The notes below the pieces were generated by a model that was not told the DNA's origin, searched no databases, and saw only the letters and a program-made list of their open reading frames with translations. From assembly GCF_002854065.1 (NCBI RefSeq), contig NZ_CP024147.1: a stretch of DNA of 64,000 bases; one strand, 5' to 3'. How positions within the stretch are numbered: position 1 is the first letter of the stretch; the number at the start of each line of letters is the position of its first letter. Shown here piece by piece: positions 26,861-35,244 of the stretch. The stretch comes from Escherichia coli. GTDB lineage: Bacteria; Pseudomonadota; Gammaproteobacteria; Enterobacterales; Enterobacteriaceae. The position numbers were made by a program, and so were the translations under genes.

Positions 26861-28177
26861 TTAAGACTTCGTCGATTTCTCAAAGCGGCGCAGTAACTGG
26901 TTCCCACGCTCAACGGCGGTATCCAGTGCCTGCTGCGGTGTCTTCTTACCGGTCCACACGCTCTCCAGCTCTTCATCCACAATCACGCGGATCTGCGGCA
27001 TGTTGCCCAGACGCAGCCCTTTGGTGAACGGCAATGGCGGCTTGTTCAGCATCTGACGCGTCGCGGTATCCGCCCCTGGGTTTTTCTCATAAAAGCCCTG
27101 CTCACGAGTCAAGTCATACGCCGCTTTGGTGATTGGCAGATAACCAGTTTTCTGATGCCACTCGGCAGCATTTTCTGGCTTAGCGAGGAAGTCGAGGAAC
27201 TTCGCCACGCCGGTATAAGTTTCTTTATCTTTGCCCTGCATCACCCACAGGCTGGCCCCGCCGATAATGGCGTTTTGCGGTGCATCTTTCGCATCGGCGT
27301 CGTAAGGCATCATGCCTACGCCATAGTTGAATTTGGCGTACTCGCGAATATTAGCGAGAGAACCGGAAGAGGCGGTGGTCATCGCGCAATCACCGTTATA
27401 GAACTTCTCGGTGGATTCATCCTTACGCCCGACGTAGCTGAAATCGCCCTTCTTGTTCATCTCTTCGAGCATGGCGATGTGTTTCACCTGCTCCGGCTTG
27501 TTGAACTCCAGCACCGCATCCGTGCCGTCAAAGCCGTTGTTTTTGCTGGCAAACGGCAGACCGTTCCAGGCGCTAAAGTTTTCCAGTTGGATCCAGCCCT
27601 GCCAGCCGCTGGCGTAGCCGCACTTCATTCCGGAGGCTTTCAGTTTTGCAGAATAGTCCGCCAGATCCTGCCAGGTTTTCGGCGGCTGTTCCGGGTCTAA
27701 TCCTGCTTTCTTGAAGGCGTCTTTGTTGTAATAGAGAACGGGGGTCGAGCTGTTGAATGGCTGGGAGAGTAAGTGGCCGGTTTTGCTGTCGGAGTAGTAA
27801 CCGGAAACCGTCGGCACAAACTGCGACTCATCGAATTGAATCCCCGCCTCTTTAAACACGTCATATACCGGTTTAATGGCTTTCGACGCCATCATGGTGG
27901 CGGTGCCAACTTCATAAACCTGCAAAATAGCCGGAGCGTTGCCGGTACGAAATGCGGCAATCCCCGCGCTTAAATTCTGTTCGTAGTTGCCTTTATAGGT
28001 CGGTACAATTTTGTAATCCGGGTTTTCGGCGTTAAAACGTTGGGCCAGAGAATCCACCTCTTTACCCAGTTCCCCTTCCATAGAATGCCAGAACGGAATG
28101 GTCGTCACTGCCTGTGCATTCCCCATTAACGCCAGTCCGAGCGCCAGTGCTGAAGCTGTATAATGTAACGGTTTCAT
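26861..28177 (-). CDS. ugpB: sn-glycerol-3-phosphate periplasmic binding protein
   Basis: 438-aa [26 protein letters not shown] (signal peptide). Confidence 0.95.
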
Positions 28178-28294
28178 CGTTTATCTCTCTTGTTGTACCG
28201 AATGCGCGAATTCACGCGTTTTATGCTCGCGGGGTAACATGACATGCTCGAATTACAGAAAAATAACTTTTTTGTTACATTTGTAAGATAGTAA

Positions 28295-28314
28295 GGTGTC
28301 AGAAAGATGACAAG
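28295..28314 (-). promoter_or_regulatory. Pho box (PhoB site) in the ugpB promoter
   Basis: Minus-strand cttgtcatctttctgacacc (CTGTCAT-N4-CTGTCAC-like direct repeats) about 120 nt upstream of ugpB. Confidence 0.5.
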
Positions 28315-28435
28315 GCGGTGACGGTACGGGTGAGGGAAAATGGGAGATGGGGCACGGATATCCCGAGAATGCACTGAAAAGAGGCGATTAACGGCCAGCT
28401 AATCGCCAGAACTCCTTACCATGAAGAGCAAAAAT

Positions 28436-28466
28436 GGCAGCAAATTCTGCGTCCAGTTTTGCTGCC
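28436..28466 (-). terminator. hairpin plus T-run downstream of ORF 28537..29283 / liv operon
   Basis: Arms ggcagcaaa (28436-28444) and tttgctgcc (28458-28466); minus strand continues atttttgctctt. Confidence 0.45.
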
Positions 28467-28536
28467 CGATGAGAGCTACATTTTTCAATTTTAACAAAAG
28501 ATTGCCGCGACACTGGTCTAACGGCAAAGAAGATTT

Positions 28537-29283
28537 TCATTGCACCACACTCTGCTTCAACCGTTCATTGGCGGTCTTAATCCATTCCCGGTGGTGTTTT
28601 CTATAATGAGGTCTTGAGCGTTTAGCCGTATCAACTACAGCAACATACTGCTCGTTGGCTTCACGTAACCGACTCATTTTCGCCAACATTTCCGCATAGT
28701 AAATACGCGCCTGCGGGCCGGGGTAATAAGAAATCAATACTTCAAACTCGCTTTCCGCATCAGCGTATTTTTCTTGTGCGGCTAACGTTCTGGCAAATAA
28801 CAAATGCCCGTCTGCCGACTGAAAATCAGGGTTATAACGCATCACATCTTCCAGCGTCTGCTGACAGGCGGCGAACTCCTGAATAGCAAACTGTGCCTGC
28901 GCCAGGCTTAGCATCATTGCCGCTTCATGGGCGAATATCCCGCTTAACGCCTGCTGATAATGGGGAACGGCTTCGTGGTAACGCTCCAGACGCGCCAGCT
29001 CGTTGGCAAGTTGATAGTGGTTTTGATTGGTCTCGGCAATCGCCAGCTCTTCGGTTAATTTGCGCAGGTGACGTTCCGGATTGATTTTGTCCTGCAGGCG
29101 CATCAGAAAGGTACGCCCGTGACGGTCAGCGCCCGTTTCTGGCAGCATCACCATGACAAAATACGCCACGCAACCAATCACCGGAAAACAGAAGATGATA
29201 AAAAACCAATATCGCTCTTGTCCGGTACGGTAAGCGTGGATACAGCAAAGCATTTCAAGCATGGCGACAACGGCATAATGCAT
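28537..29283 (-). CDS. hypothetical membrane-anchored protein (PLDc_N-like hydrophobic N-terminus plus TPR-like helical repeats)
   Basis: 248-aa ORF; N-terminus HAYRTGQERYWFFIIFCFPVIGCVAYFVMVML resembles the N-terminal anchor of phospholipase-D-like proteins; C-terminal helical repeats (YHEAVPHYQQAL...); no K-12 gene recalled. Confidence 0.6.
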   Translation of the reverse strand: MHYAVVAMLEMLCCIHAYRTGQERYWFFIIFCFPVIGCVAYFVMVMLPETGADRHGRTFLMRLQDKINPERHLRKLTEELAIAETNQNHYQLANELARLERYHEAVPHYQQALSGIFAHEAAMMLSLAQAQFAIQEFAACQQTLEDVMRYNPDFQSADGHLLFARTLAAQEKYADAESEFEVLISYYPGPQARIYYAEMLAKMSRLREANEQYVAVVDTAKRSRPHYRKHHREWIKTANERLKQSVVQ

Positions 29284-29401
29284 GGGAGGGAACCTTTCCG
29301 TGGCAAATAAGTGGTCTGGTTTTAATCCTCCCGGTCAGTTGAAACAAGTCTGTATACGGACGAATAACCCGGCAGAACTTAGCTGCCGGGTTATTGATAA
29401 T

Positions 29402-30115
29402 TTACCCGCCTAAATACGCACTTCTCACCGCTTCATTCGCTAGTAGCGCATCACCAGTATCGGAGAGCACTACATGGCCGTTTTCCAGCACGTAGCCGCG
29501 ATCAGCGAGCTTTAGCGCCTGGTTGGCGTTCTGCTCGACGAGGAAGATAGTCATCCCCTGCTCGCGCAGCTGCTCGATGGTGTCGAAAATTTGCTGGATG
29601 ATAATCGGCGCAAGACCGAGCGATGGCTCATCAAGCAACAACAAACGCGGGTTGCTCATCAGCGCGCGACCAATCGCCAGCATCTGCTGTTCACCGCCGG
29701 ACATGGTGCCTGCCCGCTGAACACGGCGCTCATGCAGACGCGGGAACAGTTCATACACCCACTTTATGCGCTCCTGGAACTGGTCGCGTTCGGCAAAGAA
29801 GCCGCCCATCGCCAGGTTCTCTTCCACCGTCATCCGCGAGAAGACGCGACGCCCTTCCGGGACAATCGCTACCGCTTCGCGCATGATTTTCGCCGTCTGC
29901 CAGTCGGTAATGTCTTTATCATCAAACACAATTCGCCCGCTGGTGGCGCGTGGATCGCCGCATAATGTGCCAAGCAAGGTGGTTTTCCCCGCCCCGTTTG
30001 CGCCAATGAGGGTGACAATCTCGCCCTGATTGATATGCAGGCTCACCTCATGCAGCGCCTGGATTTTGCCGTAGTGGGCGCTGACTTTGTCAAAGGACAA
30101 CATGACTTTTTCCAT
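29402..30115 (-). CDS. livF: branched-chain amino acid ABC transporter ATPase
   Basis: ORF 29402..30127; ATG at 30113-30115 gives MEKVMLSFDKVSAHYG; Walker A GANGAGKTT. Confidence 0.94.
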   Translation of the reverse strand: MEKVMLSFDKVSAHYGKIQALHEVSLHINQGEIVTLIGANGAGKTTLLGTLCGDPRATSGRIVFDDKDITDWQTAKIMREAVAIVPEGRRVFSRMTVEENLAMGGFFAERDQFQERIKWVYELFPRLHERRVQRAGTMSGGEQQMLAIGRALMSNPRLLLLDEPSLGLAPIIIQQIFDTIEQLREQGMTIFLVEQNANQALKLADRGYVLENGHVVLSDTGDALLANEAVRSAYLGG

Positions 30116-30116
30116 C

Positions 30117-30884
30117 TTATGCCTCACCTAAATAGGCACGGATCACGTCCGGGTTATTACGGATTTGCTCCGGCGTACCGTTTGCCAGCGGCGTCCCCTG
30201 ATTGACCACGTAAATTCGGTCCGAAATTCCCATCACCAGCTTCATATCGTGTTCAATCAACAAGATAGTGGTGTTGTGATGGTTACGCAGTTCGGCAATC
30301 AGCTCATCCAGCTCTTTGGTTTCTTTTGGGTTAAGACCTGCTGCCGGTTCGTCGAGCATTAAAATCTCCGGCTGCGTCACCATGCAGCGGGCAATCTCCA
30401 GACGGCGCTGGTCACCATAGGCCAGGTTACTCGCCTGACGGTTGGCGTGTTCCAGCAAACCAATACGCTCAAGCCAGGTGGCGGCGCGGTCGAGCGCTTC
30501 GCTCTGGGTGCGACGGAAAGACGGCGTTTTCAACAGGCCTGAGAACAGCCCGGTTTTCAGTTGCTGATGCTGCGCCACCAGCAGGTTTTCAATTACCGTC
30601 ATTTCACGGAACAGACGCACATGCTGGAAGGTACGCACCACGCCCATGCGGGCAATTTGCTGCCCCGGTAAACCTTCCAGATGCTGATCGCGCAGTAAAA
30701 TGGTGCCTCCTGTGGGTTTGTAGAATCCGGTCAGGCAGTTAAAGACCGTGGTTTTTCCGGCACCGTTAGGACCGATTAACGAGACGATCTCCTGCGGGTA
30801 CAATTCAAGATTGACGTTATTCACAGCCAGCAGGCCGCCGAAGCGCATCATCAGGCCGTTAACAGATAATAATGGCTGACTCAT
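30117..30884 (-). CDS. livG: branched-chain amino acid ABC transporter ATPase
   Basis: 255-aa [20 protein letters not shown]...; Walker [10 protein letters not shown]. Confidence 0.95.
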
Positions 30885-35045: not shown

Positions 35046-35085
35046 TCGTCAAGTTTGATTTCAAAAGTGATGACCAACGAGAAAT

Positions 35086-35188
<103 letters not shown>

Positions 35189-35244
35189 AAGCAACGTACT
35201 CGATATTAGCAATTTGGCGGCAACCCAAAGTTGCCGATTAATGA

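Follow-up and report, generated by a model that had tools for sequence, protein, structure and literature searches.

A strain-variable gene between livF and ugpB of Escherichia coli encoding a probable membrane-anchored TPR protein with a ClsA-like N-terminal hairpin

[quoted passage not shown] Both are encoded by core E. coli genes, whereas the TPR-protein gene described here is accessory. The anchor that most resembles the putative one in our protein is of another type, namely the PLDc_N hairpin of the PLD-type cardiolipin synthase ClsA (b1249). This hairpin consists of two hydrophobic N-terminal helices and a short basic loop, and a mixed-charge linker of net +3 leads from it into the globular C-terminal domain. 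In wild-type cells, this globular domain was reported to lie uniformly in the cytoplasm, and the basic loop and the net +3 linker to act as retention signals (Sawasato, Dowhan & Bogdanov, Sci Adv 2025, PMC11698083). The two-TMD hairpin also encodes inversion of the globular domain to the periplasm upon PE depletion or osmotic down-shock, and topological flexibility was associated with the presence of both positive and negative charges behind TMD2 (PMC11698083). Owing to the conserved PxxG, the second helix may enter the membrane as a re-entrant loop, and the dual topology of ClsA did not need the PxxG motif itself (PMC11698083). In small proteins that combine PLDc_N with SHOCT, PLDc_N is a portable N-terminal membrane module on non-catalytic C-terminal domains (PMC3581485).

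Here we describe a gene in a window of E. coli DNA (the whole stretch that was analysed, 64,000 nucleotides) that is strain-variable and very probably encodes a genuine TPR protein anchored in the membrane. Such presence and absence of a gene between two core operons is ordinary. The family to which it belongs is sizeable, is uniform in architecture and extends over several proteobacterial orders, and the way in which it pairs a PLDc_N hairpin with a TPR array is a modest curiosity.

The gene, its distribution and its history

The ORF lies on the minus strand at 28537..29283, stop codon included, and encodes 248 aa; in the ORF listing of the window, its ATG is the first possible start after the upstream stop. 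It is located in the 1225-bp spacer between ugpB (26861..28177, minus strand) and livF, the stop of which is at 29402 on the same strand. We compared five intact Escherichia alleles, those of the window, O157:H7, Escherichia sp. E1V33, Escherichia sp. MOD1-EC7003 and E. whittamii, and obtained dS of 0.10-0.37 and dN of 0.016-0.044, which gives dN/dS of 0.07-0.22. A word-indexed search returned 30 homologs, all of about 243-255 aa, and identity ranged from 94% (E. fergusonii/E. coli) through ~75% in Citrobacter and 44% in Pseudomonas indica to 36% in Exilibacterium. The family profile matched at least 635 proteins at E<=1e-30 among 1.84 billion representative proteins (clusters at 50% identity), and the best 150 of these 635 matches were nearly all 243-255 aa long and aligned end-to-end. 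The AlphaFold2 (AF2) model, built from a 20-sequence alignment, is all-helical and confident (mean pLDDT 88.8, pTM 0.69). Because of the low dN/dS, the confident fold and the large family of homologs, the ORF is a genuine gene under purifying selection.

The gene is already catalogued and is not new. Its protein is RefSeq WP_023308415.1, annotated as "tetratricopeptide repeat protein" in E. coli 100416 (from human stool, Gambia), with which the window is identical. The O157:H7 gene appears as WP_000558842.1 in one genome and as ECs_4300, "hypothetical protein", in Sakai. The very same amino-acid sequence occurs on 448 contigs of a public collection, and its 90%-identity cluster has 1039 members. 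No Pfam or NCBIfam model is dedicated to the family. An earlier note, made from the letters of the window, had placed a 248-aa minus-strand ORF at exactly 28537-29283, had taken its product for a genuine protein, had supposed the gene to be absent from K-12, and had called it strain-variable or unannotated. The coordinates agree with the ORF listing, and purifying selection, fold and family size bear out the second point. "Strain-variable" is also right (659/5426 genomes), but "unannotated" is not, as RefSeq annotates every occurrence.

These 659 carriers among the 5426 complete E. coli genomes (12%) all have the gene in the chromosome, at 93-100% nucleotide identity, and include O157:H7, O55:H7 and one O145 strain. 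The flanks are present in 5425 of the 5426 genomes, and at least 80% of the region is covered in 658 only. Thus the gene marks ~12% of complete E. coli genomes, including the O157:H7/O55:H7 lineage, off from K-12. In K-12 MG1655, ugpB and livF are separated by 399 bp without the gene. Blastn of this spacer showed that it shares with the window just the 183 bp adjoining ugpB (window 28178-28360). The segment that is present or absent is therefore the 1041 bp at 28361..29401, in place of which K-12 has 216 bp of unrelated DNA (positions 1762-1977 of locus L002) with REP/BIME-like palindromes (GCCGGATGCGGCGTAAACGCC..., GCCTGATAAGCG...) and a livF terminator hairpin of its own, GGAGTC-AAAA-GACTCC-TTT. 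The absence from K-12 that the earlier note had supposed was thereby seen directly, and a remnant of the gene in K-12 was ruled out because the 216-bp stretch has no homology to 28361-29401.

Further variation was seen in this neighbourhood. In E. coli ETEC1731 (NZ_CP122816.1, locus L095), a larger deletion takes yhhA, the entire ugp operon and the ugpB-livF spacer, and fuses a truncated ggt directly to livF. In the panM-livJ spacer (window about 35046-35244) lies a second presence/absence site: panM and livJ are only ~200 bp apart in the window, and between them O157:H7 Sakai has genes for an acetyltransferase and an antitoxin, ECs_4307/ECs_4308 (locus L094, 26978-27778).

The gene also sits between livF and ugpB, in this order, in Escherichia sp. 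E1V33, E. whittamii, E. albertii, C. freundii, Citrobacter sp. NCU1 and a Pseudocitrobacter MAG. At the locus of Escherichia sp. MOD1-EC7003, livF is again followed by the gene, and ugpB was not found within the DNA examined there. Since the order is kept in Escherichia, Citrobacter and Pseudocitrobacter, the simplest reading is that the gene is ancestral in the Escherichia/Citrobacter clade and was lost by most E. coli, not inserted. It would have been inherited vertically, and loss in most E. coli, K-12 included, would have occurred by a swap for REP-containing DNA. The spacer itself is a hotspot for small cargo and the locus is fluid, because C. freundii has, from the gene to ugpB (locus L004, 6850-8324), two unannotated ORFs of 93 and 135 aa and a Phd/YefM-Fic toxin-antitoxin pair. 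In E. whittamii, the gap of ~530 bp between livF and the gene contains a 96-aa hydrophobic ORF (MDFLTVVLKLFCCAVVL...; locus L018, 5597-5887), and the corresponding spacer of E. albertii is similar in size.

The alleles of the gene have a complex history. Between the window and O157:H7 (locus L001, 1938-2684), dS is mosaic, being 0.27 in codons 1-60, 0.38 in codons 61-130 and 0.057 in codons 131-247. The spread of 93-100% allele identity within E. coli is wide for a chromosomal gene with such conserved neighbours, and the LivF and UgpB proteins of the window do not differ from those of Escherichia sp. E1V33 (100% identity). This mosaic dS, together with the high allele divergence beside such neighbours, suggests intragenic recombination between old alleles.

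Two other accounts of the gene were weighed against vertical inheritance. It might be horizontally acquired cargo of an island, such as part of a defence or toxin-antitoxin hotspot; the small ORFs and the Phd/YefM-Fic pair beside it in C. freundii, the extra ORF in E. whittamii, and the unusually divergent, mosaic alleles of E. coli all show how variable the locus is. However, the slot directly downstream of livF is kept across three genera, no mobile-element genes lie nearby, and plasmid copies are absent from the 5426 complete E. coli genomes. Base composition (GC 50.1%, GC3 54%) is ordinary for E. coli and below that of its highly expressed neighbours. The protein matched none of the PADLOC-DB defence models at E<=0.1 and none of the PHROG phage families, and a defence or phage origin was rejected on these grounds. 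We consider island cargo very improbable. It is even harder to believe that the ORF is a spurious or decaying relic without function. The gene is missing in 88% of E. coli genomes, its Shine-Dalgarno sequence is weak, no clear promoter precedes it, and it is frameshifted in E. albertii NBRC 107761; yet the ORF is intact with dN/dS of 0.07-0.22 over lineages with dS up to 0.37, and length and architecture of the family are conserved across Proteobacteria. The frameshift in NBRC 107761, the E. albertii type strain (locus L019, 6001-6746), is a 1-bp deletion at nucleotide 555 followed by two in-frame stops, so that the copy in this strain is a pseudogene.

The hairpin, the linker and the TPR domain

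Codons 1-47 (29143..29283, minus strand) encode a putative two-helix membrane hairpin. In the AF2 model, a helix of residues 2-20 is followed by the basic loop RTGQERY (R19-Y25) and by a helix from residue 25 to about 47-52, which is kinked at P34xxG37. Hydrophobicity is strong in helix 2 (KD19 up to 2.6) and weak, about 1.0, in helix 1, where E10 and H16 are located. The mean net charge of the loop in the family is +1.7 in 7 residues. In an alignment of 141 diverse family members that share 24-46% identity with the query, conservation within the hairpin was as follows: H16 97%, W26 99%, P34 92%, G37 99% and Y41 99%. Indeed, the most conserved non-structural positions of the family lie in this hairpin and not in the TPR domain.

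The hairpin resembles PLDc_N (PF13396). The Pfam match of the window protein covers residues 26-43 with 16.3 bits (E=0.0099), which is under the gathering cut-off of 23.3 bits. Among 20 closer family members, 15 matched PLDc_N at E<=0.1, with a best E of 2.2e-5. Alignment by hhalign with full-length E. coli ClsA paired residues 23-47 with ClsA 37-61 (E=0.0018), with a probability of 15% over this short stretch. The register with ClsA TM2 is exact: W26, P34, G37 and Y41 correspond to W40, P48, G51 and Y55, so that the same motif, W-x7-P-x2-G-x3-Y, follows the basic loop in both proteins. The PLDc_N-like N-terminus claimed in the earlier note is thus justified at the family level, by 15 of 20 members and by the ClsA register, although the protein's own Pfam score is below the cut-off. 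One family-specific feature, the nearly invariant His of helix 1 (H16), distinguishes the TPR family from ClsA.

The hairpin is followed by a basic linker, codons 48-70 (29074..29142, minus strand), with a conserved P48 and a conserved D-P69; P48 and P69 are each 95% conserved in the 141 relatives. The pLDDT of the linker, 56-75, is the lowest of the model. Residues 48-72 have on average 5.0 K/R versus 3.0 D/E in the family (net +2.0), and residues 48-75 of the window protein have 7 K/R and 4 D/E (net +3). A mixed-charge linker of net +3 therefore leads into the C-terminal domain here as in ClsA.

Codons 71-248 (28540..29073, minus strand) encode about five TPR helix pairs and a basic C-terminal capping helix with a conserved W234. 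The AF2 model has eleven helices in residues 71-247, arranged as tandem antiparallel pairs in a right-handed superhelix, i.e., about five TPR pairs and the capping helix. The Pfam model TPR_19 gave 36.4 bits (cut-off 25; E=6.8e-9), several other TPR models matched as well, and TPR_19, TPR_16, TPR_14 and TPR_6 matched 20 of 20 family members. The TPR-like helical repeats noticed by eye are hence recognized by Pfam above its cut-off. W234 is 90% conserved in the 141 relatives, and the last 30 residues are strongly basic, with a net charge of +6 and a family median of +4.

The C-terminal domain, unlike that of ClsA, is a TPR array, and the TPR protein has no PLD/HKD domain. The cardiolipin synthase model TIGR04265 scored 12.6 bits against a cut-off of 290 and covered the hairpin alone. 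A PLD-type cardiolipin synthase was rejected because Pfam found no PLDc domain and hhalign to full-length ClsA covered 25 columns only; without the catalytic PLD/HKD domain, the protein is not a cardiolipin synthase. The small PLDc_N proteins mentioned above differ in that their C-terminal module is SHOCT, not TPR. As for LapB/YciM and YfgM, their matches to the TPR protein are generic TPR matches without specific sequence similarity, and the putative anchor of the protein described here is a PLDc_N hairpin. The C-terminus is a basic helix without Cys pairs, and no rubredoxin or zinc-ribbon family was among the Pfam matches of the protein; a LapB/YciM-type adaptor, which would carry a C-terminal rubredoxin-type zinc-binding domain, was rejected accordingly. 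The Tol-Pal model for YbgF/CpoB, TIGR02795, gave 30.4 bits against a cut-off of 90.1, a generic TPR resemblance. MamA, YrrB and TTC0263, which are stand-alone TPR scaffolds, are 14-20% identical to the protein and have no membrane hairpin. Structural matches were generic, and no specific structural relative was found among them.

Topology and possible role

The explanation that we favour overall, and regard as probable, is an ancestral accessory gene for a membrane-anchored cytoplasmic TPR adaptor; for the cytoplasmic-adaptor part taken separately, the chances are even or slightly better. The PLDc_N-type two-helix hairpin with its W-x7-P-x2-G-x3-Y motif would anchor the small protein in the inner membrane. 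The basic linker would then keep the TPR domain of about five repeats, along with the basic helix at its C-terminus, on the cytoplasmic side. Judged by what TPR domains generally do, this domain would most likely bind a partner protein there, as an adaptor or scaffold. The charge pattern and the homology to the experimentally mapped hairpin of ClsA lead us to infer a cytoplasmic TPR domain under normal conditions.

The main rival to the cytoplasmic orientation is a periplasmic one. In an N-out/C-out topology, the RTGQERY loop, basic as it is, would be cytoplasmic and the TPR domain periplasmic, with a function in the envelope like that of CpoB/YbgF, YfgM or NlpI. The YbgF score far under the cut-off (30.4 versus 90.1 bits) and the generic structural matches speak against such a function. 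So do the charges behind helix 2, since the first 13 residues have on average 2.5 K/R and the first 25 a net charge of +2, which is a retention signal, and the homologous hairpin of ClsA retains the C-terminal domain in the cytoplasm of wild-type cells (PMC11698083). Moreover, the soluble domains of the family have 0-6 cysteines and no pairing pattern. We therefore think the N-out/C-out topology unlikely. Somewhat more doubtful still is an account in which the hairpin is the functional core, i.e., a topological switch that responds to lipids or osmolarity, or a sensor of anionic lipids, and would relocate the TPR domain across membrane faces or to cardiolipin-rich domains. The motif residues are the most conserved of the family and in register with ClsA, the ClsA hairpin carries the information for inversion, and the family shares a mixed-charge linker (5.0 K/R, 3.0 D/E); but this reasoning is wholly by analogy, and conservation of the motif need not relate to flipping, since PxxG is dispensable for the dual topology of ClsA. 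Fainter again is the chance that, by the same analogy, the ClsA-type hairpin is a general portable lipid-responsive module, so that the side or location of the TPR domain would shift with phospholipid composition or osmotic shock. If this were true, the TPR family would be the first non-enzymatic client of the ClsA "flipping" mechanism.

Returning to the membrane-anchored cytoplasmic adaptor, the gene neighbourhoods named no partner for it. ORF clustering at 80 homolog loci in named genomes and the called genes around distant homologs revealed no conserved gene partner. At 23 high-GC loci, the simple ORF caller picked antisense ORFs, which are an artefact in this clustering. The neighbourhoods are lineage-specific: enterics have liv/ugp, and some Pseudomonas have a PnuC/NadR-like pair and an FAD monooxygenase. 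Guilt by association was rejected as a way to a function because synteny is lineage-specific only. No published experimental work on the gene, and no direct record of its expression, was found in the literature searched. The family could serve as a simple non-enzymatic system for studying the ClsA-type hairpin, because its most conserved element is the hairpin that controls the topology of ClsA.

Signals around the gene

Right after the livF stop, a perfect 13-bp hairpin, AAUAACCCGGCAG-N7-CUGCCGGGUUAUU, was found by RNA folding at 29363..29395 (minus strand). It is present in E. coli-type alleles and has no clear U-tract, and the terminator scan did not call it. It may act as a leaky terminator of liv or may stabilise the RNA, and read-through from liv may occur, because the scan did not call the hairpin and a clear U-tract is missing. 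The 79-nt leader that follows, at 29284..29362 (minus strand), is a putative regulatory block with the arrangement ACAGACTTGTTTCA...GGGAGGATTAAAAC...GGAAAGG...CCCTCCC-ATG. It is nearly invariant in six Escherichia sequences, including those that differ further upstream, and is partly kept in C. freundii (ACAGACTTGTTTCA ... GGAGG).

Judging from its sequence, the leader may contain a weak promoter, and a helix in it may block access to the start region. A search for a consensus sigma-70 promoter in it was negative, and TTGTTT-N17-TAAAAC is by eye at best a weak candidate. Inspection by eye against the consensus sequences gave no convincing match to sigma-E, sigma-32 or sigma-54 promoters in the leader. 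A GGGAGG/CCUCCC helix abuts the AUG in both the MFE and the centroid fold; its conservation does not extend to C. freundii. GGAAAGG, 9 nt upstream, is a weak Shine-Dalgarno sequence. Expression would come from read-through of the livKHMGF operon across the U-tract-less hairpin, from the weak leader promoter, or from both.

Downstream of the gene, the 3' UTR (28383..28527, minus strand) contains three consecutive terminator-like hairpins, at 28502-28527, 28436-28466 and 28383-28407, each of which precedes a U-rich run. The middle one, GGCAGCAAA...UUUGCUGCC followed by AUUUUUGCUCUU, has in the MFE fold of the 3' region the same coordinates as the terminator-like hairpin reported earlier, and the terminator scan also called the one at 28383-28407. 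The 181-nt 3' region folds with z=-3.7, and 0 of 200 shuffles folded as well. These three hairpins, which are confined to the allele group of the window, would serve to insulate the ugp promoter region; Escherichia sp. E1V33 and E. whittamii have one hairpin. No Rfam family matched the gene flanks at E<=1.

A 50-aa ORF at 28388..28540 (minus strand), the ATG of which overlaps the stop of the TPR gene (ATGA), runs through these hairpins. It was rejected as a gene because Escherichia sp. E1V33 and E. whittamii do not have the region and E. albertii has ATA in place of the ATG. On the other side of the gene, the livF ORF at 29402-30127 (minus strand) has GTG as its mechanical start and would encode 241 aa; RefSeq LivF has 237 aa and starts 12 nt downstream.
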